Origin: Nitrosopumilaceae archaeon
GTDB taxonomy: Archaea > Thermoproteota > Nitrososphaeria > Nitrososphaerales > Nitrosopumilaceae
Reading direction: 5' to 3'
DNA: 64,000 bases
NCBI GenBank assembly: GCA_965214835.1
Contig: CBDCCK010000002.1
Coordinates: 736,001-800,000, forward strand
Part shown: piece after piece, positions 7,201 to 31,737 of the stretch
Position numbering within the stretch: the stretch's first letter is position 1
Layout: every line of letters starts with the position of its first letter
Translations under genes and position numbers: made by a program
Notes under the pieces: generated by a model
What the model was told of the DNA's origin: nothing
Database searches by the model: none
The model's input: only the letters and a program-made list of their open reading frames with translations

Positions 7201-7747
7201 GGTCTTGAGGATAGGGCAGAGGGTGGTCCGGGACGACAGGGTGACCACGCATGTTGCGCTGGTAGCCAGGGCATTTGGCGCATCGCGCATCTACATGAAT
7301 GAGGTCAATCCGGAGATCAAGGACACCATCAAAAAAATCAACGAGACATGGGGGGGTGGCTTTGAGATAATCATGATAAACAGCTGGAGGAGGACCCTCA
7401 AGGAAAAACTCGGGGAGGGATTCATTGCGGTACACCTGACAATGTACGGGGAGCCGGTACACAAGATGGGCAGGAAGATTTCAGTGGAGGACAAAATCCT
7501 AGTCGTCGTAGGTGCAAAAAAGACTCCAAGGGAGGTCTATGAGCTATCAAGATATAACGTCGCAGTTGCAAGCCAGCCCCACTCTGAGATCGGCGCGCTG
7601 GCAGTACTGCTTGACAGGATCCAGGACGGCAGGCAGTTTGAAAAGAGGTTCGGCGGTGCAAAAAGGATTATTGTGCCCACAAACCGCGGCAAAAACGTCA
7701 GGGTAGACCAGTCTTCCCAGAATGCCCCACAGGGCGGCCAAGATTGA
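7190..7747 (+). CDS. trm56: tRNA (cytidine(56)-2'-O)-methyltransferase
   Basis: [30 protein letters not shown]. Confidence 0.93.
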
Positions 7748-7888
7748 CACAATTCGGATTGGGCGGCCTGCAGATCCGCACGCCGCTGCCTGCAGCCACG
7801 AGTCAGGCACGTGTGGGAGGGGGGGATGTATGATTTTGGCTATCATGCACCCTGCCGTTTAGGGCGAGGTGGCCTAGTACGCCGAAAG

Positions 7889-7979
7889 GTAAGAGCTTGC
7901 CCCATATGCGGCACTGCCAGCCAAGGCCTTGATCACCATTCCACCACGCCGTGTATTCGGGGGGACAGACCCCCATCAC
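7889..7979. mobile_element. Degenerate IS66-derived MITE
   Basis: Starts GTAAGAGCTTGCCCC; internal GCGGCACTG..GATCACCAT..CCACGCCG shared with the copies at 3413 and 54325; right end eroded. Confidence 0.6.
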
Positions 7980-8027
7980 TACAAGTGAAAAAAGGGATTA
8001 ATACAGGATGCGGGAAAGGGAGGACAG

Positions 8028-8543
8028 TTGGTTGACAAGTACGAGGATCCCTTTGTGAGGATCTCTGCCATGATTGGGGGCGACGAGTATCTCAAGGTTG
8101 CAAGATCACTGCTAAAGGCGGAGGATGCCACAGACGAGGAGATTGCAAGCTCCACCGGCCTTAGGATCAACATGGTAAGAAAGGTCCTCTACGACCTCTT
8201 TGGCAAGTCGCTGATTACCGGAATCAGGGTAAAAGACGAGCGAAAGGGGTGGTTCGTCTACAGGTGGAGGACCAGGAGGGAGGAGGTCGAGAACTTTATC
8301 GAAAACCAGAAGAAAAAGATCACAGAGAGGCTCCAACAGAGGCTGGACTACGAGGAGTCCTCGGAGTTTTATCACTGCGGGAACGAGGACTGCGCAAGGG
8401 TGACGTTTGAGGCTGCACTGGAGGACATGTTCAAGTGTACCTCGTGCGGAAAGATTCTGAACCTCAAAAAGAATGAAAGGTCCAAAAAGGCGTACCGCAA
8501 AAAGATCGACGAGATCAAAAAGGATATGCAGCAGATATTCTAG
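8028..8543 (+). CDS. tfe: Transcription factor E (TFIIE alpha)
   Basis: TDEEIA..TGLRIN.VRKVLYDL, GWFVYRW, C-terminal Zn ribbon. Confidence 0.92.
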   Translation: MVDKYEDPFVRISAMIGGDEYLKVARSLLKAEDATDEEIASSTGLRINMVRKVLYDLFGKSLITGIRVKDERKGWFVYRWRTRREEVENFIENQKKKITERLQQRLDYEESSEFYHCGNEDCARVTFEAALEDMFKCTSCGKILNLKKNERSKKAYRKKIDEIKKDMQQIF

Positions 8544-14788: not shown

Positions 14789-14900
14789 TACCCATGCTTG
14801 TAAAAAATGTCTTGAAAGCTCTATTTCACCCCAGATGTCACGGTGTCATTCCGCTAGATACCACGACGTGCCTGATTGAAAACGACATGAAGCAACACTA

Positions 14901-16616
14901 GACCTTATGCGTAAACGAAATTAGCGGCGATGCCCCCGGCGCACGGGCTACAAATGAGGCAAGTCAGGGCCGGCGCACGCGCGACTGTACCTTACAACGT
15001 TGAAAATATTTGATCAAAACCACAACTATTTTCAGACGATTGATTTAGATCCGGGATCCATTCTCGCATAAGAGTAATGGCAAAGTCCGAGACCGAGCAG
15101 ATACGACTGCTGAAGAAGAGAATCGAGCAGTACGAGAAGGAGAAGGTACAGGACAGGAAGGAGAAGGCGCGGGACAAAAAGAAGATCAAGAAGTATGAGA
15201 AGAGGATCAAGAGGCACGAGAAGAAGAGCAGGCAGGACAGGAAGGAGAAGGCGCGGGACAGGACGGAGAGGATGCAGTACAGGAAGGAGATCAGAGAGTA
15301 CGAGAAGAAGAGCAGGCAGGACGGCAGGAGGCAGGAGCGGGATCAGGAGAGGATAGGGCAGCTGGAACAGCAGCTGGACGCCGAGCGCCGGATGTGGCCC
15401 GCAACCTGGGATGACGACAGGCGCTCCGCGGACAACGCCGCCCTCATGCACAGGCTCGAGGTGCTCGATGACATAATCGGTGGCGGGTCCCTGCAGCCCA
15501 CCACGTCGATGAACCTCCGCCAGTTTGACTACATATATGACCGGTTTACGAAGCTTGCCAAAAAGCACACAGAAGGCCCCCTGTTCTCAGAAGACGAGGA
15601 CAACTTGCCCGGAAACCGGTGCAAGCTGTCCTACCGCCACGCCCTGCTGATGTCGCTGATGCGCAAGTACGGAAACCCGACACAGGAGCAGCTTGCGGCA
15701 TTCTTTGGCATAGACCAGAGCACCGTATGCAGGTACCTCAGGTATTGCGACATGATATTCACCAAGATACTGCCCACGCCGGACGCCGTATCGCGAAAGA
15801 TACGAAACGCCCGCACGATCAAGGAAGTCAAGAAGATCGTCCCGGATCTGACCGTGATTGTAGACGGCACGCACATCGACATACAGCGCCCCACAGACAA
15901 GGAGCCAAGAAAGGAGGCATACTCTGGCAAGAAGAAGAGCTTTACGCGCAACACCCAGGTGATTGCCGACAAGAAGGGACTGGCGATGTATGCAAGCAAG
16001 TCGGCGCCCGGAAGCACGCACGACCTCACCATGATAAAGAACAACCCACCGGATCTGGGAATCCTGACTGCCAGGATGCGCAGCAACAGAAAGCACCCCG
16101 AGGACGAGAAGGTAAAGATGTTCTCTGATCTGGGATACATGGGAATCGAGGAGGTGTATCCCGGGGCCACATCCGTGCAGCCCGACAAGAAGCCAAGGAA
16201 AGGCAAGCTTACAAAGAAACAGAAAGCGCAGAACAGGAGGATAAGCAGCAAGAGGGTGACAGTAGAGCACGCCATAGGACGGATAAAGCAGTACAAGCGG
16301 ATGCGTGATCCGTACGACGGGACCGCCGAGGAGTTCGACAGGGAGTTCCAGGTGACGGCCGGGCTTGCCAACTTTAGGCTGCTGTGGGACAAGCGGAACA
16401 AGAAGCTCATGCATGGGTTCTGATACCACGATACGGAGCGCATTGCGGCGCCACACGATGCCGCACGACATTGTCGTTTTTACCAGCTGTAATGGCTCGT
16501 AGCTACACTATATACGGACTGTGCCGCCCTCATGCACGTCATGTGATGCCGTCAGCCTTGCATGTATGGCCGGTCACCGTCGGAATATTTCGATCCGGTC
16601 GATTACGCATAAGGTC
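14901..16616 (+). mobile_element. Apparently intact IS5-family (ISL2/PIF-like) element
   Basis: TIR GACCTTATGCGTAA / TTACGCATAAGGTC, TA duplication. Confidence 0.9.
15077..16423 (+). CDS. IS5-family DDE_Tnp_4 transposase with a long charged N-terminus
   Basis: HTH (QEQLAAFFGIDQSTVCR), IVDGTH..QRP, YSGKKK, PGSTHD, SDLGY, RVTVEHAIGRIK. Confidence 0.92.
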   Translation: MAKSETEQIRLLKKRIEQYEKEKVQDRKEKARDKKKIKKYEKRIKRHEKKSRQDRKEKARDRTERMQYRKEIREYEKKSRQDGRRQERDQERIGQLEQQLDAERRMWPATWDDDRRSADNAALMHRLEVLDDIIGGGSLQPTTSMNLRQFDYIYDRFTKLAKKHTEGPLFSEDEDNLPGNRCKLSYRHALLMSLMRKYGNPTQEQLAAFFGIDQSTVCRYLRYCDMIFTKILPTPDAVSRKIRNARTIKEVKKIVPDLTVIVDGTHIDIQRPTDKEPRKEAYSGKKKSFTRNTQVIADKKGLAMYASKSAPGSTHDLTMIKNNPPDLGILTARMRSNRKHPEDEKVKMFSDLGYMGIEEVYPGATSVQPDKKPRKGKLTKKQKAQNRRISSKRVTVEHAIGRIKQYKRMRDPYDGTAEEFDREFQVTAGLANFRLLWDKRNKKLMHGF

Positions 16617-16691
16617 TACTGTAAGGAAAACCGCCGACGGCAGACTTGAAAGGCACAACCAAGACGACCCAAATTCACGATCTGTGCATGA

Positions 16692-17373: not shown

Positions 17374-17480
17374 GTGAACTACCAACGACTAAAGCCGTTG
17401 GCTTCCTCGTTCAACGAGCCGGCTTGACCATGGCGATTTGTCATGACCAGAGGCCTTCTCTCCGGAGGCGTGACTTTCCC
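17374..17480 (-). mobile_element. IS200/IS605- or IS607-type right end (TnpB omegaRNA scaffold-like remnant), no tnpB gene
   Basis: Minus strand GGGAAAGTCACGCCT...GGCTCGTTGAACGAGGAAGCCAACGGCTTTAGTCGTTGGTAGTTCAC: terminal hairpin plus TCAC, typical of these ends. Confidence 0.7.
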
Positions 17481-17635
17481 GCGTCCCACAGACAAGGATC
17501 CAAGAAAGGAGGCGTACTCGGGCAAGAAGAAGAGCTTTACGCGCAACGTCCAGGTACTGGCCGACAAGAGGGACCTGACGATGTATGCAAGCGAGTCGGC
17601 TCCCGGAAGCGCGCACGACCTCACCATGATAAGGG
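17481..17635 (+). pseudogene. Internal fragment of the IS5-like transposase
   Basis: RPTDKDPRKEAYSGKKKSFTRN...PGSAHDLTMI, homologous to ~15885-16040. Confidence 0.85.
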
Positions 17636-19044
17636 ACAACTCGCTTTCTACGCTGCCCCTGCGGCAGATAATTCCGGATGATGACGCCAACTGGCTGAAC
17701 CAGACAGACAACGACTTTGATGAATTGGTTCCAGTCATAGATACGGATGGCGGAACTTCGCTGTTTAGGACACTGTTGATGGGATCAACGTCAGGTCGAG
17801 ACGAGTGGGTATGTGACTTTACTAAATCATCACTTCAGAGCAAGATGAAATACTTTGCTAAATTTTACAATGACACAATTAAAAAATATAATGAAGAGAA
17901 ACTAGATGGTGATCTAAAAGACTGGGTGGATAAGAAGATCAAATGGGGTAGGGAAATTATTAAACGATTGAAGCATGGAGATGAAATAGTCTACTCTGAC
18001 ACCAACATCAAAAATCTACTGTATAGACCGTTTGTATTAAAATTTCATTATTTTGATAGGATAATAGTCGATTATCAAAGAAAGTTCCCACAAATTTTTA
18101 AAGATAACAACCCAAACAAAATCATTTGTTTTGTAAACCCGCAAAATAATTCAACATTCCAAACCTTGGCAACTAATCAGATTGCAGAATATCATCTAAC
18201 TGACACGACACAATGTATTCCGCTTCATACATACGATATGGATAATTACAGTTCCAGCAATGTGACAGAATCTGGACTAGAACTATTCCAAAAACATTAC
18301 AAGGACAAAACGATAACTGATGAAGACATATTCTACTACACCTACGCCATCTTCAGCGATCCAAAATACTCTGGCAAATACAAGTTTAACCTGCAGCGCA
18401 AATTTCCGCGAATCCCGCTGGCTGAGAATTTCAGGGAGTGGGTGAGGATAGGTCAGAGGCTGTACATCCTGCATACGGAGTTTGAGGATGCAGAGCCTTA
18501 CGCGTTGCACAGAATAGACAAAAAAACCCGCAAAAATGGCACCAAGCTAAGACTGAAAAAATCCGACGAAAACCAATCTGTGATAATAATAGATGAGCAG
18601 ACCGTCCTTGACGGTGTCCCAAGCCAGGCTTTGGAATACAAGCTCGGTTCAAAGTGTGCACTGGAGTGGATTCTGGAGTTCTACAAGGAATCAAAGAACG
18701 TCATAAAAGAAAAGTCATGCGATGATCCCGCAATACGCGAGAGATTCAACACGTACAGGTTTGCAGACCACAAGGAGCATGTCATAGACCTGCTGCAAAG
18801 GGTTACCACGGTCTCGGTAGAGACAGTGAAGCTGCAGCGAGAACTCGAAAGAATGCCCTGGGGGGAACAGCCAAAACCATACCTTGGAAAATCTGACGTC
18901 AGTGTCGACAAGGCAACGAAAAAACCGCAAATGAGGAAATCCAAACAGCCCAAAAAGCCAAAAGTCGCAAAGAAGAACAGAAGGAAATCCGGGCTCCAGG
19001 ACACGCTTGACGGATCCGGGCAGAAAAGGCTGTTTGGGAACTAG
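17633..19044 (+). pseudogene. Orphan C-terminal (specificity) part of a Type ISP-like methyltransferase, cassette A
   Basis: DNSLSTL..WLNQTDNDF..LYRPF..FPRIP..CALEWILEFYKE..GQKRLF; open frame; paralogue of 27371-30565. Confidence 0.85.
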
Positions 19045-19126
19045 GCCACGGCAGAGTCACATACAGCCCAGCTCCCTAAGTTAACGCCAGAAACCCCTAA
19101 CTTAACACCCCGCTGAAAAGCCCCGA

Positions 19127-19164
19127 AGATTTACCAGAGTACTAAACTGTACTCTGGTAAATCT
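19127..19164. repeat. Perfect 16-bp inverted repeat with a 6-bp spacer (left border site)
   Basis: AGATTTACCAGAGTAC-TAAACT-GTACTCTGGTAAATCT. Confidence 0.95.
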
Positions 19165-19287
19165 CCGAGAGTTTTCAGAGACCTGTTAAATTAGGGTGCT
19201 GGGGTGTTAAATTAGAGTGTTAGAGACGTCGGCAAGAACAAACGATTGATGGCACGCTACAAGCGTTGGCTTCGGGAATGTTGAAGG

Positions 19288-21159
19288 TCAGAACAGCCTT
19301 TTCTGGCCGGTTCCGTCAAGCGTGTCTTGGAGCTTGGATTTCTTTGATTTCTTGGGTTTTTTAGGCTGTTGTCTGGTTTTTTTTGTTTGCAATTTTCTCA
19401 TCGTCTTGTCATTGCCGGCATCAGACTTCTTAAGGTGCAGTTCCGGCTGCTTCCCCCAAGGCATGTTTTCAAGATCCCGCCGCAGATTCATCGTCTCGAC
19501 TGAGATACTGGTGACCTTTTGTAGTAGGCCTATGACATGTTCCTTGTAATCTGCAAACCTGTACGTGTTGAACTTTTCCCGGATTTTGGGATCATCGCAG
19601 GATTTGTCGGATATGACGTTCTTTGATTCCTTGTAGAATTCTAAGATCCATTCCAGTGCGCATTTTGAGCTGAATTTGTATTCCAATGCTTGATCAGGTA
19701 CATCCTCAAGTATGGTCTGCTCATCAATCACTATTTTCAATGACTCGCTTTCTGATTTTTTTAAACTCAATTTGGTGCTGTTCTTGTTTGTTTTCCTGTC
19801 TGTGCGTTTTAACGGAAATGGCTCTGCCTCTTCAAAATGGACATGAAGGTCATAGAGTTTTTTGCCTAGCCGTACCCATTTCGAAAAATTTTCTGCGAGA
19901 GGTATTCTTGGGAACTTGCGCTGGAGATTGAACTTGTATTTTTCTTGGTATTTCGGATCATTGAAAATGGCATAAGTATAGTAGAATACGTCCTCGTCTG
20001 TTATCGTTTTGCTCCCGTAGTGTTTTTGAAATAACTCCAAACCAAAGTCAGTAATGTTGCTGTGACGCTTGCCCTCGTCATCGTATGTGTAAAGCGGGAT
20101 GCACTGAGTGCCAACAACACAATCAAGATCCATGATTTTATCAGTTGCCAATGTCTGAAATAACACATTAGTTTTTGGATTGGCAAAACCAATTAGCCTG
20201 TTTGATCTAGAATTTTTGAAGATGTTAGGAAATTTTCTCTGCCTATGTGTTATTATTTTATCAAAATAATTCTTCTTCAATACAAATGGCCTATACATTA
20301 CGTCTTTGATGTTGGATTTTGAATATGCGATTTTATTTCCACGTTTTATATGCTTAAAGAAATCCTCGGTCCACTTGATTTTTTTATCTGCCCAGTCTTT
20401 TAGACTAACCGCTAGGTTTTCTTCATCATATTTAGAAAGTGTTTTGCTGTAAAAATCAACAAAATATTTTATCTTGTTTTCAAGCGATGTTTGGTCAAAA
20501 TCATACACCCATTCGTTCCTGTTTGATGCCAGTCCCATAGACAGTACTCCAAATATGGAATTTTCTTTATCAGACACGATCGGAACCAGTTTTTTAAAAT
20601 CATTGTCAGTCTGGTTCAGCCAGACCGCATCCTCGTCGGGCACTATCTCCCTTAGCTGCAGGGTAGAAAGCGAGTTGTCCGCAAGCCATTTTAGCTTAGC
20701 TTCACTTTTCATATAGTCTGCAATTTCTGTGTATCTAATCTCAGATTTTTCTTCACCCGTTTTGATAAAAAAGGATATGGTTACACCAACCTTGATGGTG
20801 TCTCGAAACACGTTGCCTTTCTGTTTGCGGCGTTCCTCGCCTGATGTACGAGCATTTCCCTTCAGGTTGACAGTATAGATGTAATCAAACTCTTCAAACA
20901 CCGACCTCCTGAACCCATCGTCTGACTTTGCGTCAAGAAAGGAGTTGTTGCTCACAAATATGACCATGCCGTTGTTCTTGATGCGCTCGCTTGCCCACTT
21001 GAGAAAGCGCTTGTACATGTCATACTGCTTATCCTTGTTCCCTACAGTGGAATTTTTGACGTACGTTTCTTCTATTTTCTTATCAAGGTCAGGATATTTG
21101 TCAGCAGGATTTGCGTCGTTAAAGCTTACCTGGACCGCGTTGTACGGCGGGTTTCCCAA
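19288..21159 (-). pseudogene. 5'-truncated alternative C-terminal half of the Type ISP-like methyltransferase (from GNPPY to stop), cassette B
   Basis: Open frame; homology to the full gene begins abruptly at TTGGGAAACCCGCCGTAC; lacks the SAM-binding motif I. Confidence 0.9.
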
Positions 21160-22330
21160 AACTCGCCTTAGTATGTGTGAGCATATCCAGAACACAGTTA
21201 ATCTGTTGCGGTGTTGCCCGCTCTAAGATCTCCTGTATTTGCTGTTTCGGTTCTGATCTAGAAATTACACCCACCTGATCCAAGTATTCCTCGGATCTTG
21301 CAAAGGCATCACTCATTTCATTTAGCAAAACTTCTGGAAGGATCCCCTTGTTTGTGGTGTATCTTGATTCGATGGTGCCTTTATGCCCCATGAAGAAGAC
21401 TCGGAAATCATGCGCAATCTTTCCTTTAGACTCTGCTATTAGCAGCTGTGTGTCAAAATATGCACGTAGCACATACGGCCTCCACCCAAATTTGGGTCGG
21501 AGCGTATTGCGTATTTTGTCGCTTATTCGTTGTGTTGGAAGGAACGCCTTTTGCGATCTTCTCCAAGCATGTACTTCACTATGATCGTTGGGGGATATTA
21601 CGGGTGAGTTCTCGTCCAGATTCTCCCCAGACGCAAGTCTGTCGTTTAGATACGTCACTAGCTGTTCTGTTGCTTGACATGTGGAGAATGTAAAGTACTG
21701 GTGTCCTGCCTTTGACAATTCACGTCTTACGATGATTCGGTTTGGCGTCCGGATGCATTTTACTGTTCCATGTAAAATCGAAATATCTGGAAGATCCCTC
21801 ATCTGTAACCCATCTGTCCCTCTGTGGTTACCAATTACGCCCGGTCTCATACCTGATTTTGCCATAAGTGATATCAGCACGGATTCTCGCAATCCTGCAT
21901 TGCTGTATATGTCTGTCATTTCATGTGCATCAGGCACCCGTTCATTCTGCAGTGTGGGAGAAAACCCAGCAGATGCAATTCTTATTCGTCGCTTTACCAC
22001 CACATCAAAATGCCTGAACCAGGATTTTACGGTGTTTATATGATCCTCTATGTATCCAGGAGAATAGTTGTTGGACTCCATCATGGTTATGTGATCCTCC
22101 AGCAGGTCTGTTGCAGTCCTCAGATCGTTGACTGCAAGATCTGCAAGCTGGGAGGGAGTCATCTTGTGCATCTCACAGAACCTTCCCAGCTTCCGCAGGC
22201 GTCCCTCGGCGGTAAGAGGACTTCCACGCATCAGATTGTCATACCACCGTTGGACATCCTGATTAGATAGTAATTTTGATTTCTTGGTGTGGTTGGCAAC
22301 GTCTTTTGCACACGCTTTACGGGTTTTCAT
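21119..22330 (-). CDS. Tyrosine recombinase/integrase (archaeal type)
   Basis: SGMRPG (R), ELSK (K), PYVLR (H/YxxR), FMGH (H), RYT (Y). Confidence 0.9.
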   Translation of the reverse strand: MKTRKACAKDVANHTKKSKLLSNQDVQRWYDNLMRGSPLTAEGRLRKLGRFCEMHKMTPSQLADLAVNDLRTATDLLEDHITMMESNNYSPGYIEDHINTVKSWFRHFDVVVKRRIRIASAGFSPTLQNERVPDAHEMTDIYSNAGLRESVLISLMAKSGMRPGVIGNHRGTDGLQMRDLPDISILHGTVKCIRTPNRIIVRRELSKAGHQYFTFSTCQATEQLVTYLNDRLASGENLDENSPVISPNDHSEVHAWRRSQKAFLPTQRISDKIRNTLRPKFGWRPYVLRAYFDTQLLIAESKGKIAHDFRVFFMGHKGTIESRYTTNKGILPEVLLNEMSDAFARSEEYLDQVGVISRSEPKQQIQEILERATPQQINCVLDMLTHTKASFGKPAVQRGPGKL

Positions 22331-22400
22331 ACGGATTGGTTTTAGATGCCTAATCTTATCCTTATGCGTGACAGGGCATCCACTGTTAAAAAATAAGGCA

Positions 22401-23744
22401 TCAGGAAAGCAGTTTCATCCAGCAGCTGTTTTTTCCATTTGACAGCCAGCTGAATCCGTGCAGACGTAGTATATCATTGATTTCCCGCCAGATGTGCTTG
22501 TCAATCCATGCCCTGGGAGATATTTTGATAGAATCCCCCTCGTTCACAATTGAAACTTTGCTAATTCTCTTTCCCAAATTGCTTGTAAAACTCGGTGTCG
22601 TCATCGACTGTTTTATCAGGTCCAAATACTTGTCGTTTCCAAGTCCAAGCTCGATCCCTGATGCCTGAGCCGGAGTCCTGCCGTCAAGCCCCTGATGCGG
22701 TTTTACAAAATTGTGGTTTATTTTCAGCAACTCTGCAAAGTCCTGTGCTGACTCGTCATTGCCAAGGCCGCGTCTTGCCTTTAGGTTCTCTCTGATCTCG
22801 TTGTGATACCTCTCTATGGGCCTGTTTGCAAACCCGTCCCTGATGGATTTTGTTTTGACATGTGCTGTCATTTCTTTGAATTCTTTTCGCATTGCCTCCT
22901 GATACGAGTTTAAGGCATCTGTAATGACATAGTTAGGATACTTGGGTATCAGCTTCTTACCGCTTGCTATGATTCTTCTTGCATCTGCAATCTCGCGTCT
23001 CTTGGAGACTTCGGTAGCAATCAGAAATCGGGTCTTGGGATCAATGATGCTCCACAACCAGTCATAGAATCCCTTTCCAGTCTTCTCTGTGTTTTTTACG
23101 TTCAGCGTCATCTCATCCAAAGACCATACATCACCAAGCGTTGGACAAAATGACTCCACGTATTCTTTGATCAGTTGGGTGTATTTTTTTATCCAATTTC
23201 TAACGGAGACGTAACTGATCTTAATTCCGTGGACGGAATTGATGTGTCTTGAAATGTTTCTGTACGAGACGCCTGACATGACTAGGTTGATTGATTCGGA
23301 TATTATCTTTGGATCAGACGACATCTTTGAAAACCCGCTTTCTCCAAGGTTGAACCTATAGCCGCATTGCTTGCATTTGTATAGTTGTCTCTTTGTATCA
23401 TCCTTGAGAATTCTGAACCCAGACTTGATTATTGTAGTCGAATAACATTTGGGACAGATTCTTGGCTGTTCCGTCTTTTCAATCCTATTTTGGGTCTTGA
23501 TGTTGTCCTTTAGCATTATGCAACATATGATATGCTTGCAATGCTTGTCGTCTTGTGTTCTGAGCCGGTTATGAAAATCCGGACACTCGCATGTCCATAT
23601 GTCTATGTCATGCAGTTTTTTTACGCTATATTCCTTGTCGGAGTTTTGTGATTTTACTACATAGTGGTTCTTTGTTATCTTTCTGACCGAGTTGACCTTT
23701 GAGAGGATCTGGACTGCTTTTTCATCCCTACTTGTATACTTCAT
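22401..23744 (-). CDS. IS6-like DDE transposase/integrase with an N-terminal SWIM finger and Zn ribbon
   Basis: WTCECPDF..CKHI (SWIM), CPKC..CKQC, WSLDEM, IIDPKTRF, ITDAL, NRPIERYH, NFVKPHQGLDGRTPA. Confidence 0.85.
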   Translation of the reverse strand: MKYTSRDEKAVQILSKVNSVRKITKNHYVVKSQNSDKEYSVKKLHDIDIWTCECPDFHNRLRTQDDKHCKHIICCIMLKDNIKTQNRIEKTEQPRICPKCYSTTIIKSGFRILKDDTKRQLYKCKQCGYRFNLGESGFSKMSSDPKIISESINLVMSGVSYRNISRHINSVHGIKISYVSVRNWIKKYTQLIKEYVESFCPTLGDVWSLDEMTLNVKNTEKTGKGFYDWLWSIIDPKTRFLIATEVSKRREIADARRIIASGKKLIPKYPNYVITDALNSYQEAMRKEFKEMTAHVKTKSIRDGFANRPIERYHNEIRENLKARRGLGNDESAQDFAELLKINHNFVKPHQGLDGRTPAQASGIELGLGNDKYLDLIKQSMTTPSFTSNLGKRISKVSIVNEGDSIKISPRAWIDKHIWREINDILRLHGFSWLSNGKNSCWMKLLS

Positions 23745-23829
23745 ATTGTATAGATAACGGTATATCTATAAAACATTATCTGCCTAAAGCCAGATATCCT
23801 TTATATATGTGGATTCACATATTCGAATA

Positions 23830-23988
23830 TTGGCAAGGAAAAAAACAAGTCTCACTTTGGATGAGAAAATCTGGAATAACTTTCAGGCATACGCATTAAA
23901 AAAACACGGAAACACTCGTAACGCCAACACAGAACTGGAGCTTGCCATGTATGAATACATTAAGAATCACCCTGTGGAGAAAAAATAG
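23830..23988 (+). CDS. Small ribbon-helix-helix-like regulator
   Basis: Own translation (TTG start): MARKKTSLTLDEKIWNNFQAYALKKHGNTRNANTELELAMYEYIKNH.., 52 aa, divergent from the transposase and upstream of the RM genes. Confidence 0.65.
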   Translation: MARKKTSLTLDEKIWNNFQAYALKKHGNTRNANTELELAMYEYIKNHPVEKK

Positions 23989-24074
23989 AATGAATGTTAA
24001 CCGCAAATCGTCAAGGATGCCTGTATTGGGCGGTAAAAATCTAAAAATTCAAAAACAAGCCAAACGCGTGATTC

Positions 24075-27000
24075 ATGGGTAACGGTGAACTAATCATGGG
24101 TAGTGAGGATACGGTAATTGACAATGAGAGTGTCGTACTTTTAGATCAACTAAGAGAGATACTGCCAGATACGAACAGGGCAAGCATTGCGGTGGGCTAT
24201 TTCTTCATCTCTGGATTCAGCGCAATAATGGGTAGCTTAAACAAGATAGAGTCAAGCAGCGACCCAAACCACGTTATACGGCTGTTGATCTCACCGACTA
24301 CAAACCGGGCCACGGCAGAGGCGTTACTTGCAAGCAACGAGTCTTATGAAACAGCAAGAATGAGGGGCAAACAAACCGGTTCTGAGGAAAGAGGAAAAAA
24401 GACCGCAAAAGAAGAGGTCAAAAAAACGCTTGAGTACATGTCGCAAACAAACGAGGATCAAAAGGCTACAGCGAAACTTGCCGAACTGATCAAAAAGAAA
24501 AAAGTGCAGGTGAAGGTATATACAAAGGATCAACTTCATGCAAAGGCGTATATTTTCGAGCTTGACAACAGACAGCTTTCAAAGATGGCAATAGTAGGTT
24601 CCAGCAACCTCTCAATGTCGGGGATAAAGGAGCATACTGAGCTTAATCTGAGAACAAATCACTCAGGCGACTCTGGCAAACTGCTAGAATGGTTTGATCG
24701 ACATTGGAACGATCCCAGCTGCCAGGAATTCACGCGGGAGATAGCTGACATCATAGATGAATCCTGGATTGCCAAACACTCGCCAAATGACGTGTACGAC
24801 AAGGCGGTTCTTCATGAGCATGAAGAACTTTTTGAAGAGCCCGACGGAGTAGATGAAAAAACACGAGAGTTGTTTGACTTTCAAAAGACGGCAGTAAGCA
24901 ACGCCATAAAAAAACTCGACAGGTATGGGGGTGTCATGATTGCCGATGTGGTGGGTACAGGCAAATCCTACATTGGTAGTGCCATTCTAAAGCATCTCAA
25001 GGAGAACAACCGCTCAAAACCACTGATAATATGCCCACCCCACCTCAAGGAGATGTGGCAGGAATACATGAAAGATTTTGACATTTACTGCCAGATAGAA
25101 TCAAGATACAAGATAGGCATGGAGGATAACATACTCTCACGCTACACAAACTGCGACGCGGTGTTGATAGACGAGAGTCACAACTTTCGCAATTCAAGCA
25201 CAAACGCATACAGGGCACTGCTTGCATTCATGGAGGAAAAGACAGAAGAGGCCAAGATAATCATGCTGTCTGCCACCCCGATATCAAACCGCATCACGGA
25301 TCTAAAGAACCAGCTAAGGCTTTTCCCAAGAGAGATGCTCTTGCAGATACCTCCCCTGAACAACACAACACTTGATGAATACTTTAAGGGATTAGACGGC
25401 CCAAAAGACGAGCTCAGAGAGGAGGCCGACACCAAGATACGGGAACTTCTCAAGTATATTCTAATCCGACGTACCCGCAAGCAGATCATGAAAAAGTATG
25501 CCAAAAAAGACGGCAAACGGTACTATCTTGAAAAGGACGGGCAACGAAAGTACTTTCCAAGAAGAGAGTTACAGAATCCAAAGGAGTACAATGTTGACAA
25601 GGTGTACAACAACTCCTTTGACATGATCCAAAGCGCGATTGAGGATCTTACCCTTGCGAGGTTTGCCCCGGGAAACTACATCAAGAAAGAATATCTGAAC
25701 GACTCTAACCCGGACCACAAAAAATATGTCGATTTGAACAGTACGACAAAGCCACTGGTTGGCATAGTTCGGACATCGCTACTCAAGAGGATGGAAAGTA
25801 GCATCATGGCGTTTGCATCCAGCGTAAAGCACTATCAGGAAGGGTACAAGGAGTTCAGAAAGCAGCTTGACAAGGGCAAGGTTCCCATCGGAAAGGACTT
25901 TCATGATGAGATATACAAGAAGATCGCATACGAGGGGGAAGACTATGACGACGAGGAGTACGAGCAGAAAATGGCAAAGATCTCATCTCAGTACGACATA
26001 GAGGCGTTTGACGTGGAACGTTGGAAGAGGGACATAGCAGAGGACATTAACCGTTTTTCAAGCATCAAGGGGAATCTGGTGTCAAAGTCCGAGTATACCA
26101 AATATGATGACAAGCTCCACACGCTGGTAAAACTGGTCAACGGAATGGACAGGGAAAAGATTCTGATCTTTTCTGAATCTGCCGTAACCGCAAAATACGT
26201 CTACGAATACATGAAAAAGGAACTAAATCCGCCTCGTCGTATTGCGCAGATTGACTCTAAACAGGGAAACAGGGAGAAAAATGTCTTGATCAGGAAGTTT
26301 GATCCGAAGAACAACAACGCTACTGCTGATGTTCCAAAAAGCGAGGAGATTGACGTGTTGATAAGCACGGACGTACTGTCTGAGGGAGTGAACTTGCAAG
26401 CTGGCAAGACGGTAATCAACTATGACTTTCACTGGAATCCCGTCAGGCTCATACAGAGAGTAGGAAGGATAGACAGGATAGGCACGCAACACGAAACTGT
26501 CGACGTGATCAATTTCCTTCCTACGGCAAAGATTGACGCGACTCTCTCGCTCAAAGAAAGGGTTGCAAACAAGATTGAGACCATCCGCAGGATAATAGGA
26601 CATGATCAGCAGATACTAGAGTCAACAGAAGTATTGGACGAAAAGGGCGTGCTTGACATTTATGCTGGTAACGAGGACGTACTGGATTCTGATGTTGCAA
26701 GCATCATTGATATGGGCGAATCAAAGTCAGAACAAGACGCAGACAATATAAAAAGAGATGAGACAAGAAGACAACATATCGAGCAGATGCCCTTTGGCAT
26801 AAGAAGCGTTTCAGGCACGGGTAAGCTTCTGATAGCGTGCGAGGCACGGGAGATTGTAATGGATCAGCGTGGCCGCCACATGTCTGAACGTCCGTTTAGA
26901 AGACACTACGAAATAACGAAGGACAGCATTACTCAGATCTGGCAGTCATCCTTCCTGAACGAGTTGGGGAAAAACCAAGGAAACCTATCCGGCACGGAGG

Positions 27001-27374
27001 ATTCCACATATAACGAGCTTGTGGCTGAAGCGTGGAAAAAGTTCGATAAGGACATGAAAAATTCCAGTGCAAAAAAGACCATGCTAAAGCACCAGCAATA
27101 CTTTGATAAAAAATTAAGACAGATGTCCGAAAGTCAGGACTTGGGCCGTCGCGCAATGTCCATGCTGCCGTTCGTAGGACAGAGAATGCTTACAAATCTC
27201 CAGCCGTACAAGAGGCTAACCGAGCTTCGCAAGGAGATTGACAGGAATCCCGACACTGATGACAAGATGATAATCGAGGGGTTGGAAACGATCAGGGATA
27301 AATACGGACAGACGGAATATGAAAAGACGATAAGCAAGCCTCGTATACTGTATAGCATGATGGTGGCCAAATGA
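24075..27374 (+). CDS. PLD-family nuclease plus SF2 (SNF2-like) helicase, putative restriction subunit
   Basis: AVGYFF, LHAKAYIF..IVGSSNLS..ELN (PLD); ADVVGTGKS, DESH, SATP, TDVLSEGVNLQ, WNPVRLIQRVGRIDR. Confidence 0.9.
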   Translation: MGNGELIMGSEDTVIDNESVVLLDQLREILPDTNRASIAVGYFFISGFSAIMGSLNKIESSSDPNHVIRLLISPTTNRATAEALLASNESYETARMRGKQTGSEERGKKTAKEEVKKTLEYMSQTNEDQKATAKLAELIKKKKVQVKVYTKDQLHAKAYIFELDNRQLSKMAIVGSSNLSMSGIKEHTELNLRTNHSGDSGKLLEWFDRHWNDPSCQEFTREIADIIDESWIAKHSPNDVYDKAVLHEHEELFEEPDGVDEKTRELFDFQKTAVSNAIKKLDRYGGVMIADVVGTGKSYIGSAILKHLKENNRSKPLIICPPHLKEMWQEYMKDFDIYCQIESRYKIGMEDNILSRYTNCDAVLIDESHNFRNSSTNAYRALLAFMEEKTEEAKIIMLSATPISNRITDLKNQLRLFPREMLLQIPPLNNTTLDEYFKGLDGPKDELREEADTKIRELLKYILIRRTRKQIMKKYAKKDGKRYYLEKDGQRKYFPRRELQNPKEYNVDKVYNNSFDMIQSAIEDLTLARFAPGNYIKKEYLNDSNPDHKKYVDLNSTTKPLVGIVRTSLLKRMESSIMAFASSVKHYQEGYKEFRKQLDKGKVPIGKDFHDEIYKKIAYEGEDYDDEEYEQKMAKISSQYDIEAFDVERWKRDIAEDINRFSSIKGNLVSKSEYTKYDDKLHTLVKLVNGMDREKILIFSESAVTAKYVYEYMKKELNPPRRIAQIDSKQGNREKNVLIRKFDPKNNNATADVPKSEEIDVLISTDVLSEGVNLQAGKTVINYDFHWNPVRLIQRVGRIDRIGTQHETVDVINFLPTAKIDATLSLKERVANKIETIRRIIGHDQQILESTEVLDEKGVLDIYAGNEDVLDSDVASIIDMGESKSEQDADNIKRDETRRQHIEQMPFGIRSVSGTGKLLIACEAREIVMDQRGRHMSERPFRRHYEITKDSITQIWQSSFLNELGKNQGNLSGTEDSTYNELVAEAWKKFDKDMKNSSAKKTMLKHQQYFDKKLRQMSESQDLGRRAMSMLPFVGQRMLTNLQPYKRLTELRKEIDRNPDTDDKMIIEGLETIRDKYGQTEYEKTISKPRILYSMMVAK

Positions 27375-30300
27375 GTTTTGAGGATCGCCTGGAATCCCTT
27401 CAAAGGACGCTGAAATTAAGCGGATATGAGAATATACGCCATTTCGTTGACATAAGCGCGCTAGTAAGGGACGAATCAGTAAGCGACTGTGAGATAATAG
27501 CGCGCAAGGATTTCTACAACATCTTATATCTGGAGGCAAAGTCAAACTGGCGCGGCATTGCCACCGACGTGGCCAAAAAGCAGTCAAAGCCATGCCTTGT
27601 CATCACTGGCTACGGGGAATCACACCTGATCCTATCCACCATCAAGGATTACTTTACAAATCCAAGACCGCGCCATGTCATCATCGACACAAGATCCAAG
27701 ACACATTCTTTTGACGGATTTGCAAAGCTGATCAAGGTAAGGCCGGAGGACGATTTTGTATCTATAGATGAGCAAGTACACCATGCGTTTGATGAATTTG
27801 CGGCGTACGAGGAGGCGCTTGACGAATTCGGCGAGAACCTCAAAAACGCAATAAAAAACACACGGGAAATCATAGTAAAGGCATCAAAAAACAACAAGAG
27901 ATACGACGCAGAGTCTGAACAGTTTCTGGAGATGTGTCACAAGGTGATAAGCAACAAGCTCAAATCAGACGACATTACAGAGATGATTCTTCAGCATGTC
28001 CTGACATACAAGATCTTCTCCCTGATATACGACGAGCACGAACTCCACAGCACCAATGCAATAGCACGGTCACTTGAGGGCATAATAGATACGCTTGGAG
28101 TCGATATGGAGCAGATTAGTACCGGCTACCAGACGACAAAACTGGTAGCCGAATCGCTTACAGATTTTGCCGAAAAGCAGGACTTTCTCAAACGCGTGTA
28201 TGAGACGTTTTATGCAGAGTATGACCCAAAAAACAAGGACAGTTGGGGAATAGCATACACCCCATCAGAGGTTGTGGATTTCATGGTAAGGTCGACCGAC
28301 CAGCTGCTTGAAAAACACTTTGGAAAATCAATGTCCGATGATTGTGTTACCCTACTTGATCCGGCCACCGGTACGGGAACATTCATTACACAGATCCTGA
28401 GGCACCTGAAGCACAACTCTGTCAAAACCAAATACGAAAATGACATATTTGCAAACGACATATCGTTACTGGCATACTACATTGCTGCGCTGAACATAGA
28501 GAATACATACCAAGAGATAACAGGGCAAGTCAAAGAGTTTGAGAACATATGCTGGATGGATACCCTTGCTACTGGCACAAAGGACTTTGGGAAGGTAAGC
28601 ACGTATTTTGATGAGCAGGACAATGTAAAGAGGATCTCAAAGCAGCAAGTAAAGGACATATGTGTGGTCTTGGGAAACCCGCCGTACAACGCGGTCCAGG
28701 TAAGCTTTAACGACGCAAATCCTGCTGACAAATATCCTGACCTTGATAAGAAAATAGAAGAAACGTACGTCAAAAATTCCACTGTAGGGAACAAGGATAA
28801 GCAGTATGACATGTACAAGCGCTTTCTCAAGTGGGCAAGCGAGCGCATCAAGAACAACGGCATGGTCATATTTGTGAGCAACAACTCCTTTCTTGACGCA
28901 AAGTCAGACGATGGGTTCAGGAGGTCGGTGTTTGAAGAGTTTGATTACATCTATACTGTCAACCTGAAGGGAAATGCAAGACTGTCTGGTGATGCATGGA
29001 GACGCGAGGGGGATAAAATATTTGGCCAGAGTGCGCGTGTTGGCATATCCATATCTTTTTTTATAAAAACGGGAGAAAATCATTCAGAGATACGATACGT
29101 GGAAATAGACGATTATTTGAAGAGGGAAGATAAGCTAAAATGGCTTGCGGACAACTCGCTTTCTACCCTGCAGCTAAGGGAGATAGTGCCCGACGAGGAT
29201 GCGGTCTGGCTGAACCAGACTGACAATGATTTTAAAAAACTGGTTCCGATCGTGTCTGATAAAGAAAAATCTGTCTTTGAATTGCTTTCAATGGGTTTAA
29301 CATCTAATAGAGACGAATGGGTGTATGATCTAGGCCGGAAATCACTTGAAAACAAAATGAGGTATTTCGTTGATTTTTACAACAAATCAGTCGCACAATA
29401 TCAGAATGAACATCCTAAGGATACAGAATTCAAAGACTGGGCAGATAAAAAAATCAAGTGGACCGAGGATTTCTTTAAGCATATAAAACGTGGAAATAAA
29501 ATCGCATATTCAAAATCCAACATCAAAGACGTAATGTATAGGCCATTTGTATTGAAGAAGAATTATTTTGATAAAATAATAACACATAGGCAGAGAAAAT
29601 TTCCTAACATCTTCAAAAATTCAAGCCGTAATAGACTGATTAATTTTACAAATCCTACACCAAAAAGCCGATTTCATGCGCTTGTGTCAGACAAGATCGT
29701 TGATCTTCATTATGTTATTGACACTCAATGCATTCCGCTTTACACATATGATGATGGGGGCAAGCGTCACAGCAACGTCACTGACTTTGGTTTGGAGTTA
29801 TTTCAAAAACACTATAGGAACAAAGCGATAGCAGACGAGGACATATTCTACTACACCTATGCCATTTTCAATGATCCGAAATACCAAGAAAAATACAAGT
29901 ACGATCTGCAGCGCAAATTCCCAAGAATTCCGCTGGCTGAGAATTTTGGTGATTGGGTGAAAATAGGCAGGAAACTGTATGATCTCCATGTCAACTTTGA
30001 ATGTGTCAAAAAGTATCCATTGAAGCGAACAGACAAAAAGACTGCAAAAAATCAAACCCGACTCCTGCTGAAAAAACCGAAAGAGGAAGACAACTCTCAG
30101 GATTTTACCATAATGATTGATGATAATACGATGCTTGAAGGAGTGCCAAAAGAAACGTTGCAATACAAATTCAGCTCAAAATGCGCACTGGAGTGGATCT
30201 TAGAATTCTACAAGGAATCAAAGAACGTCATATCCGACAAATCCTGCGATGATCCCAAAATCCGGGAAAAGTTCAACACGTACAGGTTTGCAGATTACAA

Positions 30301-30565
30301 GGAACATGTCATAGGCCTACTACAAAAGGTCACCAGTATCTCAGTCGAGACGATGAAGCTGCGGCGGGATCTTGAAAACATGCCTTGGGGGAAGCAGCCG
30401 GAACTGCACCTTAAGAAGTCTGATGCCGGCAATGACAAGACGATGAGAAAATTGCAAACAAAAAAAACCAGACAACAGCCTAAAAAACCTAAAAAACCCA
30501 AGAAATCAAAGAAATCCAAGCTCCAAGACACGCTTGACGGAACCGGCCAGAAAAGGCTGTTCTGA
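27371..30565 (+). CDS. N6-adenine DNA methyltransferase with a Type ISP-like C-terminal specificity domain
   Basis: GIAYTP..VVDFMVRS, LDPATGTGTF, GNPPY, NLKGN, RDEWVY, YRPF, FPRIP, ALEWI; ATGA overlap with the helicase stop. Confidence 0.92.
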   Translation: MSFEDRLESLQRTLKLSGYENIRHFVDISALVRDESVSDCEIIARKDFYNILYLEAKSNWRGIATDVAKKQSKPCLVITGYGESHLILSTIKDYFTNPRPRHVIIDTRSKTHSFDGFAKLIKVRPEDDFVSIDEQVHHAFDEFAAYEEALDEFGENLKNAIKNTREIIVKASKNNKRYDAESEQFLEMCHKVISNKLKSDDITEMILQHVLTYKIFSLIYDEHELHSTNAIARSLEGIIDTLGVDMEQISTGYQTTKLVAESLTDFAEKQDFLKRVYETFYAEYDPKNKDSWGIAYTPSEVVDFMVRSTDQLLEKHFGKSMSDDCVTLLDPATGTGTFITQILRHLKHNSVKTKYENDIFANDISLLAYYIAALNIENTYQEITGQVKEFENICWMDTLATGTKDFGKVSTYFDEQDNVKRISKQQVKDICVVLGNPPYNAVQVSFNDANPADKYPDLDKKIEETYVKNSTVGNKDKQYDMYKRFLKWASERIKNNGMVIFVSNNSFLDAKSDDGFRRSVFEEFDYIYTVNLKGNARLSGDAWRREGDKIFGQSARVGISISFFIKTGENHSEIRYVEIDDYLKREDKLKWLADNSLSTLQLREIVPDEDAVWLNQTDNDFKKLVPIVSDKEKSVFELLSMGLTSNRDEWVYDLGRKSLENKMRYFVDFYNKSVAQYQNEHPKDTEFKDWADKKIKWTEDFFKHIKRGNKIAYSKSNIKDVMYRPFVLKKNYFDKIITHRQRKFPNIFKNSSRNRLINFTNPTPKSRFHALVSDKIVDLHYVIDTQCIPLYTYDDGGKRHSNVTDFGLELFQKHYRNKAIADEDIFYYTYAIFNDPKYQEKYKYDLQRKFPRIPLAENFGDWVKIGRKLYDLHVNFECVKKYPLKRTDKKTAKNQTRLLLKKPKEEDNSQDFTIMIDDNTMLEGVPKETLQYKFSSKCALEWILEFYKESKNVISDKSCDDPKIREKFNTYRFADYKEHVIGLLQKVTSISVETMKLRRDLENMPWGKQPELHLKKSDAGNDKTMRKLQTKKTRQQPKKPKKPKKSKKSKLQDTLDGTGQKRLF

Positions 30566-30688
30566 CCTTCAACATTCCCGAAGCCAACGCTTGTAGCGTG
30601 CCATCAATCGTTTGTTCTTGCCGACGTCTCTAACACTCTAATTTAACACCCCAGCACCCTAATTTAACAGGTCTCTGAAAACTCTCGG

Positions 30689-30724
30689 AGATTTACCAGA
30701 GTACTAAACTGTACACTGGTAAGT
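30689..30724. repeat. Right border site (arm-TAAACT-imperfect arm)
   Basis: AGATTTACCAGAGTAC-TAAACT-GTACACTGGTAAGT. Confidence 0.9.
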
Positions 30725-30765
30725 TAACGGGAGCTGATTTCTCCTGGAAGGCGTCGGGAGCCGGA
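30711..30765 (-). mobile_element. End remnant of the IS6-like element
   Basis: CTGGTAAGTTAACGGGAGCTGATTTCTC matches 10382-10410 and the reverse complement of 31700-31733. Confidence 0.75.
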
Positions 30766-30918
30766 ACCGGTGGCTATCCCTCATGCTAACGGCCGGGTGA
30801 TGTCGGAGGAGGTGACCTAGTACAAAAGAAGGCTTCTTGGTTTTGTCTGGATTTGGCTCAGCGTCTCATTTGGCATCTTGGGTTGGCCGGTTGATGCTAG
30901 TCACGCACAGAATATACG

Positions 30919-31200
30919 CTAGTCTAGAATGACTGGTCTCCAGTCAGACAGATTACGGGAGTTATAATTGCACTCATCCTGATCGTTGTACATCCATTCG
31001 TTATTGTCTAATATCACAACGCCGCCAAAGAGGCTCTTGGAGTTCTTTATGTATCGCGTAAGCGCTTCGGCCTTGTATTTGGCCTCTTTTGCAGTAAATC
31101 CTTCCTTGGTATCGAACAGCCCTACCTTGCCATTCTCCATGCGGATTATAAAATCAAGCCGGAGCAAATCCGGATGAGTATTTCCTGACGAAGGTATCAA
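30919..31200 (-). pseudogene. C-terminal fragment of a Type III-like restriction (Res) endonuclease
   Basis: DFIIRMENGKVGLFDTKEGFTA...KAEAL..Y...GGVV; PD-(D/E)xK-like; truncated. Confidence 0.55.
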
Positions 31201-31228
31201 AAACTCACTGTATTTCTTCCGCGCTAGC

Positions 31229-31737
31229 TGGATTCCGAGACACGGTTCTGGCTGGCCCAGACGGTCTCAGAACACAAGGGAAACGACGACGTGTCCCCGA
31301 TGTTCAGGGATGCCAAGAGGAAGGCAAGCAAAATCCCAAAGATGCTGATATCGGACAGGGCTGCAAACTTTCACCATGCATGGAGGGAGCAGTACCGATC
31401 CAAGAACTTCCTCCACAAGGACACCGAACATCACAGGAACATCCATCTCTCCGGCGACATGAACAACAACCAGATGGAGTCATTCAACGGCAACACACAG
31501 GGCCTGCGAGAAGGTGATCCGTGGGATTAAGAGGGACGATTCTGCCATACTCAGGGGGATGCAGATCCACCACAACTACATCAGGCCCCATCAGGGTCTT
31601 GACGGCGACATGCCGGCAGACAGGGCCGGAATCAGAATAATGGGAGAAAACAAGTGGAAGACCATAATCCAGAACGCCCATACCAGCTCCCGACGCTTTC
31701 CGGGAGAAATCAGCTCCCGTTAGCTTACCAGTCCCCA
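31229..31737 (+). pseudogene. Frameshifted IS6-like transposase 3' half with its element end
   Basis: DSETRFWLA, LISDRAANF, NNNQMESFNG, HNYIRPHQGLDG; ends TTACCAGTCCCCA. Confidence 0.8.

Follow-up and report, generated by a model that had tools for sequence, protein, structure and literature searches.

The ends of Mu and Tn7 carry several direct copies of a binding motif, at the tip and subterminally, with helical-repeat spacing. In IS30 and IS911 the junctions between ends have a spacing of 2-3 bp and are unstable intermediates, and a spacer as long as the target duplication is the circle-junction signature of IS3-type elements. Type I hsdS shufflons are inverting specificity-gene switches of restriction-modification (R-M) systems.

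Elements of the IS6 family make target duplications of 8 bp, and their terminal inverted repeats (TIRs) are described as 14-20 nt long with a GG start. The published TIR features are 'cTGTt ... caaa' (PMC7986276) and GGTTCTGTTGCAAA (PMC6807381). According to the text of PMC7986276, IS26 carries out targeted transposition and lands beside a resident copy, while IS6-type enzymes form cointegrates and not circles; the same text cites the IR-targeted insertion and the abutted-end junctions of IS30 and IS911. Harmer & Hall stated that archaeal "IS6" elements need a separate family (PMC6807381). The IS of thaumarchaea are treated as elements of one or two genes in passages of two surveys of thaumarchaeal and archaeal IS (PMC6563490, section 14 among them; PMC13343696), and these passages describe neither the transposon family reported here nor its end-abutting habit.

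We analysed a window of 64,000 nt (this means the whole stretch of DNA that was studied) from a Nitrosopumilaceae archaeon, in which two palindromic sites with one and the same 6-bp spacer stand at the borders of a gene cluster. It is highly probable in our view that these palindromes are junctions of the TIRs of a cargo-carrying transposon, which made a 6-bp duplication and was inserted against an older end. The sites are similar to loxP, dif and att sites in their inverted arms, their 6-bp asymmetric spacer and the tyrosine recombinase nearby; they differ in that the spacer varies, the recombinase does not co-occur with the sites, and the arms are predicted tips of a DDE transposon. They are also similar to the junctions of IS30 and IS911, where incoming ends at a fixed short spacing from a resident inverted repeat give a palindromic end-spacer-end structure, but those elements have other transposase families, and here the 6-bp junctions persist in the genomes of several genera.

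The element resembles IS6/IS26 in the IS240/IS6-type DDE domain of its transposase, in its tip (CTGTTcAA, compared with cTGTt..caaa) and, for IS26, in the landing beside a resident copy (PMC7986276). It differs from them in several points. The duplication is 6 bp and none with 8 bp was found; the TIRs are about 70 nt long, with two subterminal repeats and without the GG tip; the transposase has 447 aa with an N-terminal CxC..CxH motif and zinc ribbon, and its score is under the NCBIfam cut-off for IS6; and a single pair of ends encloses 1-9 kb of cargo, which is not placed between two IS copies. Insertion is 6 bp outside the resident tip, whereas the IS26-type cointegrate shares the IS. The multiple direct predicted sites in each end, with 21-bp spacing, are reminiscent of Mu and Tn7, although the transposase family is unrelated, no accessory targeting proteins were seen and the sites are putative.

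The palindromic junctions and the limits of the element

The palindrome at 19127-19164 is perfect, with 16+6+16 nt (AGATTTACCAGAGTAC-TAAACT-GTACTCTGGTAAATCT), and 30689-30724 is its near copy (AGATTTACCAGAGTAC-TAAACT-GTACaCTGGTAAgT), with a right arm that matches at 14 of 16 positions. The TAAACT spacer has one orientation at both sites, though the adjoining DNA is inverted. Before each arm there is a pair of CTAANTTAAC motifs with a 21-bp period (CTAAGTTAAC/CTAACTTAAC at 19076/19097, and CTAATTTAAC twice at 30638/30659), and at each site the arm starts 21 nt past the second motif. These features had been described in a sequence-only reading of the window, and they were confirmed. Reverse-complement copies of the motif lie at 19185/19206. 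With one mismatch at most, TTACCAGWGTAC occurred four times in the window against 0.19 expected, and none of 100 shuffles reached four. In the whole genome, CTAANTTAAC was found at 12 places, six of them at the three ends of the window locus. A search with TTACCAG[AT]GTAC, proposed in the same reading, gave seven places in the genome, and homologous ends were also located in relatives.

The inverted flank had been taken as about 540 bp, which was too short. The inverted homology extends over 2,059 nt with 86% identity (19131-21162 versus 28667-30722). Perfect blocks in it (28670-28977, 29131-29268, 29432-29622 and 30194-30704) are interspersed with divergent ones, and the outermost 139 nt before each terminus are 100% identical. 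It counts against the transposon explanation that ends without any difference have to be accounted for separately, by gene conversion or by inversion within the R-M repeats; for the perfect outermost block, which takes in the 72-nt spacer and the TIR, gene conversion between the cassettes at both ends is the best explanation. The right half of the second palindrome consists of GTAC and then the end of a degenerate IS (30715-31732); the same arm is not present there a second time.

Because profile-paired ends with 6-bp direct repeats were found across the family, the window element is predicted to be 19149-30704 (11,556 bp), with TAAACT as the target duplication. The features of the locus are as follows.

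17443..19044, plus strand: TRD3, what is left of the C-terminal part of the older element's MTase, cut off on the upstream side by a DDE_Tnp_4 IS
19070..19142, minus strand: older decayed end of the same family, after the TRD3 MTase remnant, which the new element abuts (nhmmer E=2.3e-19)
19143..19148, plus strand: predicted target-site duplication copy 1, TAAACT, which as the 6-bp spacer separates the new left end from the older one
19149..30704, no strand: predicted transposon, 11,556 bp, with inverted ends and TAAACT on both flanks
19149..19220, plus strand: left TIR, with tip site GTACTCTGGTAAATCT and two subterminal TGTTAAATTAG sites at 19184-19194 and 19205-19215 (nhmmer E=1.8e-16; 33-end alignment)
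19288..21195, minus strand: silent 5'-truncated inverted MTase copy with the alternative Type_ISP_C specificity domain TRD2
21119..22330, minus strand: cargo-encoded tyrosine recombinase P0001, proposed to invert the specificity cassettes
22401..23744, minus strand: transposase P0002, with CxC...CxH zinc motif, IS1-type Zn ribbon and IS240/IS6-type DDE domain
24075..27374, plus strand: PLD-nuclease/SNF2-helicase subunit of a Type ISP-like R-M system (Pfam)
27371..30565, plus strand: expressed MTase, with ISP_coupler, N6_Mtase, Eco57I and the Type_ISP_C specificity domain TRD1 (Pfam)
28667..28977, plus strand: innermost perfect inverted-repeat block, with its partner at 20852-21162 and a counterpart of about 308 nt in locus L106
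30633..30704, minus strand: right TIR, 100% identical to the left TIR over 139 nt (nhmmer)
30705..30710, plus strand: predicted target-site duplication copy 2, TAAACT
30715..31732, plus strand: degenerate sister-family IS, whose end ACTGGTAAGTTAACGGGAGCTG is homologous to the transposon end

As judged from these alignments, an older end of the same family, that of the TRD3 copy, is present on the left side only, and the right neighbour is GTAC with a related but degenerate IS end. The IS at 30715-31732 belongs to a sister family; the transposases of that family share 27-29% identity with P0002 along their whole length. The end of this IS can be seen to be related to that of the transposon, and most of the right "arm" at the second palindrome comes from it. 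The likeness of this arm is only partly explained by the homology of the two IS families, which counts against the transposon explanation. One of two readings offered earlier was that of transposon ends with arrayed transposase-binding sites and with TAAACT as a duplication made by insertion exactly between two older ends. The transposon ends, the duplication and the insertion against an older end held up with the paired ends and 6-bp repeats, but the second older end has to be given up for the sister-IS end.

The sister IS family has a dozen or more copies and fragments in the genome, and the comparison of their left and right sides yielded nothing usable on its TIRs and duplications. The copy at 30715-31732 has no flanking duplication, and unrelated sequence, with a 93-aa minus-strand ORF, has taken the place of its left half.

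The family of ends and its transposase

The two CTAANTTAAC motifs and the arm recur in the genome at C2:854480/854552, 65240, 2465380 and 2242428. These copies of the end module stop at the identical base (..CAGAGTAC) with unrelated DNA beyond, and there is an MTase remnant in front of some of them and not of others. The module was present in 4 of 31 genomes, G000 counted. The alignment of 33 distinct ends demonstrated homology over about 70 nt, with the consensus.tACaCTGtTcAATcTt.GgggctTTTCaac.gg.TGTTaAaTTaGgG...T...gtGtTaAgTTaGgg, and subterminal motif 1 was seen in 30 of the 33, motif 2 in 23 and both in 22.

Each end of about 70 nt has three direct TGKTMAAT-type sites, one at the tip and two subterminal ones about 30 and 51 nt inward. 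TGKTMAA is common to the tip and the subterminal sites, which co-vary (e.g. TGGTCA three times in L070 and L064), and this co-variation argues that a single protein reads all three. From the co-occurrence with the ends and the likeness of the tip to IS6-family TIRs, we infer that P0002 is this protein, its binding being putative.

P0002 (447 aa) matched Pfam DDE_Tnp_IS240 above the cut-off (E=5.8e-14), and its N-terminus has the CxC...CxH motif and an IS1-type zinc ribbon. The best NCBIfam model was transpos_IS6, with 99.2 bits against a curated cut-off of 125 (IS1, 65 against 100). The family consensus tACaCTGtTcAATcT resembles the published TIR features of IS6, with CTGTT..AA kept.

Using the nhmmer end profile, we identified 12 elements, that of the window among them, in which inverted ends are paired round a P0002 orthologue; their sizes are 2.3-11.6 kb. 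The further 11, with sizes of 2.3-8 kb, come from other genera, and the integrase is absent from all of them. These elements demonstrate the pairing of homologous ends round the DDE gene. In genome G017, an orthologue with 76% identity has a homologous end about 400 nt downstream with the tip outward, and no integrase was found within 10 kb of this locus. Matches to the arm and/or the CTAANTTAAC motif lie beside the P0002 orthologue at L034, L035, L042 and L059. Genome G053 has two copies of a 4,976-bp element (99.98% identical), in which the orthologue lies at one end and the cargo consists of broken Type I MTase/S genes; its TIRs of about 58 nt align base for base with the arm and first motif of the window.

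Of the 401 family genomes, 65 have P0002 orthologues (E<=1e-60), often in several copies, as in G053, G188, G230 and G386. This tally and the counts of abutted ends given below take in the unpublished genomes G217, G269, G090, G271, G239 and G104. As in DDE transposons in general, we found paired ends round the transposase gene, variable direct repeats and multiple copies. On these sequence comparisons, the ends are assigned to a Nitrososphaerota transposon family that encodes a predicted 447-aa zinc-finger/IS6-like DDE protein. It counts against the transposon explanation that the transposase gene of the window does not adjoin an end, unlike that of the other elements, with the integrase and the silent cassette lying between.

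It could instead be that an inverted duplication of the MTase 3' part, made for or by the R-M switch, simply ends at the palindromes, with the TAAACT pair coincidental and nothing mobile. The repeat is indeed unbroken from the MTase domain to the arms, and its outermost perfect block stops exactly at the arms. However, the module of about 70 nt, with the identical end base, occurs without an MTase after the tRNA-Met gene, at C2:2465380 and in G002, G017 and G053, while the R-M repeat of L106 is without the module. The 6-bp coincidence has a chance of 1 in 4096, yet the pattern recurs in 4-5 other elements. We therefore give this explanation hardly any credence and keep to transposon ends.

P0002 is 70-76% identical to the orthologues of other genera (22401-23744 versus L020:10207-11547), while the best relative of the MTase has 64%. 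The surroundings of the G017 orthologue look A+T-rich by eye, compared with 52.6% G+C in the window's genome. These identities and this impression of composition suggest a possible recent transfer between genera. Family ends lie beside tRNA genes in two genera, after tRNA-Met (C2:65240-65370, L002) and on both sides of a tRNA in G053 (L064:12323-12470), which may be a target preference or chance.

The tyrosine recombinase and the restriction-modification cargo

No Pfam, NCBIfam or PDB sequence match was obtained for P0001. Its homologues form a large family, named site-specific integrase by some sources, and R162, K207, Y286, R289, H316 and Y324 are invariant. The structure model, of moderate confidence (pLDDT 66.5), has a fold which matches only the tyrosine recombinases XerA, Cre, IntI and XerH.

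The other reading offered earlier makes the palindromes core sites of P0001 and the CTAANTTAAC motifs arm-type sites, so that recombination between the direct TAAACT overlaps would excise a circle of 11.56 kb. The form of the sites agrees with it, having 16-bp inverted arms and an asymmetric 6-bp spacer that is identical and direct at both; a tyrosine recombinase, recognised by fold and invariant residues, is encoded inside the element, and a solo end lies directly after the tRNA-Met gene (C2:65240). But when 17 loci with ends or remnants were searched by tblastn with the integrase there was no match, and 15 of them are other loci that hold a P0002 orthologue. Conversely, ten loci round integrase orthologues (64-71% identical) in other genomes had no end, no Type ISP MTase and no DDE gene, and the integrase of L106 also comes without ends. 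The nine full-length integrase loci in the genome (eight paralogues and P0001) showed no such sites save at the window locus. Finally, the spacer differs at every junction, and the flanking 6-mers behave as target duplications at unrelated loci. The ends occur independently of the integrase, and core sites with an excised circle are very improbable. By the same comparisons P0001 is placed in the R-M unit and not with the borders.

Two further candidates were rejected. The solo end after tRNA-Met (C2:65240) was considered as an att site at a tRNA, but no integrase is near, G053-family ends are also tRNA-adjacent (L064) and duplications are made. Weak second arms after solo ends (GGT(T)AAAT, 12-14 nt past the tip) were considered as attB half-sites, and decayed abutting ends (G002) fit them better.

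The final 44 nt of the recombinase ORF (21119-21162) are inside the perfect repeat block from the MTase gene, and the alignment of the integrase orthologues ends at about residue 385-390 of 403. Among the ten integrase-orthologue loci, the sole long inverted repeat is that of L103 in genome G057 (169-1433 and 7027-8296; 1,273 nt, 77%), 4.4 kb from the integrase orthologue. It may be another inverting locus.

By Pfam, the cargo is a split Type ISP-like system, in which the PLD nuclease and SNF2 helicase (24075-27374) are followed by an overlapping MTase (27371-30565). It has two overlapping ORFs, whereas the Type ISP enzyme is a single nuclease-helicase-coupler-MTase-specificity polypeptide. 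The genes of P0001 and P0002 lie between the inverted MTase copies. The protein identity of TRD3 with TRD1 is 59%.

The same R-M unit was found in a Nitrosopumilus MAG (L106:3374-13159), in the order truncated MTase, integrase (78%), helicase and MTase. Its inverted repeat is 1.8 kb long, and neither a DDE gene nor an end was found in it. The window and L106 have in common a perfect block of about 308 nt (307 nt in L106) at the inner repeat edge, followed by alternating variable and perfect blocks. In the protein searches, the closer integrase orthologues (65-84%) and the pairs of one full-length and one about 600-aa MTase gave matching longest-contig values (13722, 164739, 314800, 709138, 33594, 54532, 22305 and 138425). 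Among the assembled contigs of runs X3-X5, the unitig covering 21130-28699 ends inside the perfect repeat.

The unit thus has the parts of a switch, namely an expressed gene and an inverted truncated copy with perfect blocks in common, and a recombinase adjoining them. We consider the cargo unit likely to be an inverting specificity switch of a split Type ISP-like enzyme in archaea, and the cassettes would actually be inverted. It is similar to hsdS shufflons in the inverted 5'-truncated copy, the mosaic of perfect and variable blocks and the adjoining tyrosine recombinase. Unlike in them, what would be switched here is the Type_ISP_C domain belonging to a split archaeal MTase, with inversion putative. 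The inverted homology reaches 2 kb, far beyond a normal TIR, because this cargo places an expressed and an inverted silent specificity cassette by the two ends.

Upstream of the locus, the DDE_Tnp_4/HTH_Tnp_4 IS at 14895-16622 has 24-nt inverted ends (92%). A partial second copy of a DDE_Tnp_4 IS at 17481-17640 (89% over 160 nt) cuts the TRD3 remnant. In the 5' part of the DDE_Tnp_4 transposase ORF there is a direct repeat array with a 21-nt period (15114-15344), with five overlapping 105-nt copies which are 60-72% identical to the reference copy.

Target duplications and abutted ends

Exact 6-bp direct repeats were found at the profile-defined tips of 5 of the 12 elements (TAAACT, TTGATA, AAAAGT, TAGATT and AAAATA), and a sixth element has a TATTTT repeat after a 1-nt shift; the chance expectation for a 6-bp repeat is about 12/4096. 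Six of the 12 had no target duplication at profile-defined tips, which counts against the transposon explanation. We attribute these to putative recombination between copies, which they would fit, and they prove nothing on cointegrates.

In the window, the new left tip (19149) faces the tip of the older TRD3 element (19142) across the 6-bp duplication. The same arrangement was seen in other genomes. In G106, an inserted 2.35-kb element with the duplication AAAATA abuts another end across AAAATA, and a pair of facing ends is separated by CCTACA in G010 and by AAAATT in G370. A search for inverted tips 6 bp apart (<=3 mismatches) gave 11 of 401 family genomes and 6 of 27 genera, against one genome for the reversed-pattern control. 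When the gap was left free from 0 to 30 and an exact match was required, the spacing was 6 bp at 7 of 9 places and 7 bp at the other two, which are one sequence in two genomes; the control pattern matched in four genomes in the free-gap search. The spacers of the abutted ends vary (TAAACT, CCTACA, TATTTT, AAAATT, CAAAAT, ACAAAC, GGATAT and others), with at least 10 different 6-mers, and the GAAATA junction comes solely from the unpublished genome G217. Metagenome contigs scanned for abutted ends gave no match.

Because 6-bp abutments recur elsewhere with different spacers, the palindrome is read as a habit of the family and not as a conserved crossover core. From these sequences we conclude that the family apparently tends to use the 6 bp immediately beyond a resident tip as its insertion site.

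The ends could also be TIRs whose abutment is the junction of an integrated circle or tandem dimer, formed by a copy-out-paste-in route as in IS3, IS30 and IS256. It speaks for this that the spacer has the length of the duplication, that the 6-bp spacing is sharp and that the older and new elements of the window are head-to-tail, as in a dimer. The abutted elements are different, however, with TRD3 having 59% identity to TRD1, and the 2.35-kb element of G106, which is without transposase, abuts a different element. In the window and G106 the spacer is repeated beyond one element only, as in simple insertion, and the products described for IS6-type enzymes are cointegrates and not circles (PMC7986276). 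This alternative fits less well than insertion beside a resident tip, and we judge it improbable.

At C2:854480-854625 (L001:9480-9625), after an MTase remnant, there is a 72-bp direct duplication of the last 32 nt of the end with CCAAG. It looks like a decayed 66-nt mini-element inserted against a resident tip (CCAAGC / CCAAGA). A "mini-element" of about 80 nt in G010, with a 4/6 duplication, was dropped as a candidate; a second G010 locus has the same left flank, and its limits are uncertain.

An empty site, with arm and arm joined by TAAACT, was also looked for as the sequence-only reading had proposed, and no bridging contig was found among public assembled contigs. In the assembled contigs of run X1, which is from a different study, 17592-19152 had a depth of 86, with 30 further contig letters that do not fit the window; the depth was 57-72 from 30720 onward and 0-7 in the interior (19170-29300). 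No contig listed for this run joins 19152 to 30711. The depth pattern is a hint of an empty site and not evidence of one.

Insertion beside a resident tip may proceed as follows. P0002 would recognise the tip and the subterminal CTAANTTAAC sites, and transposition with a 6-bp staggered cut would leave TAAACT on both sides. The spacer keeps its orientation though the flanks are inverted because TAAACT would be the target duplication. The insertion would have taken place in the 6 bp directly outside the older tip of the TRD3 copy; therefore the two tips stand opposite one another, 6 bp apart, and look like a loxP/dif core. Transposase bound on the resident end might steer the target capture to the adjacent 6 bp.

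We suggest, tentatively and with somewhat less than even confidence, that the end-6 bp-end junctions may be a working target by which defence transposons stack into R-M/defence islands in ammonia-oxidising archaea, or else integrated circle/dimer junctions of a copy-out-paste-in route undescribed for IS6-like enzymes; either way a phase-variable R-M unit with its invertase would be spread between genera as cargo. A tempting att/dif-like site with a giant palindromic circle junction is replaced by a defined transposon family in Nitrososphaerota, characterised by three sites in each long end, duplications of 6 bp, zinc modules in an IS6-like transposase, and an R-M system as cargo. In this cargo there is also a likely inverting specificity switch of a Type ISP-like enzyme in archaea, and a sharp preference for insertion 6 bp from a resident tip would explain why defence genes pile up at one place.
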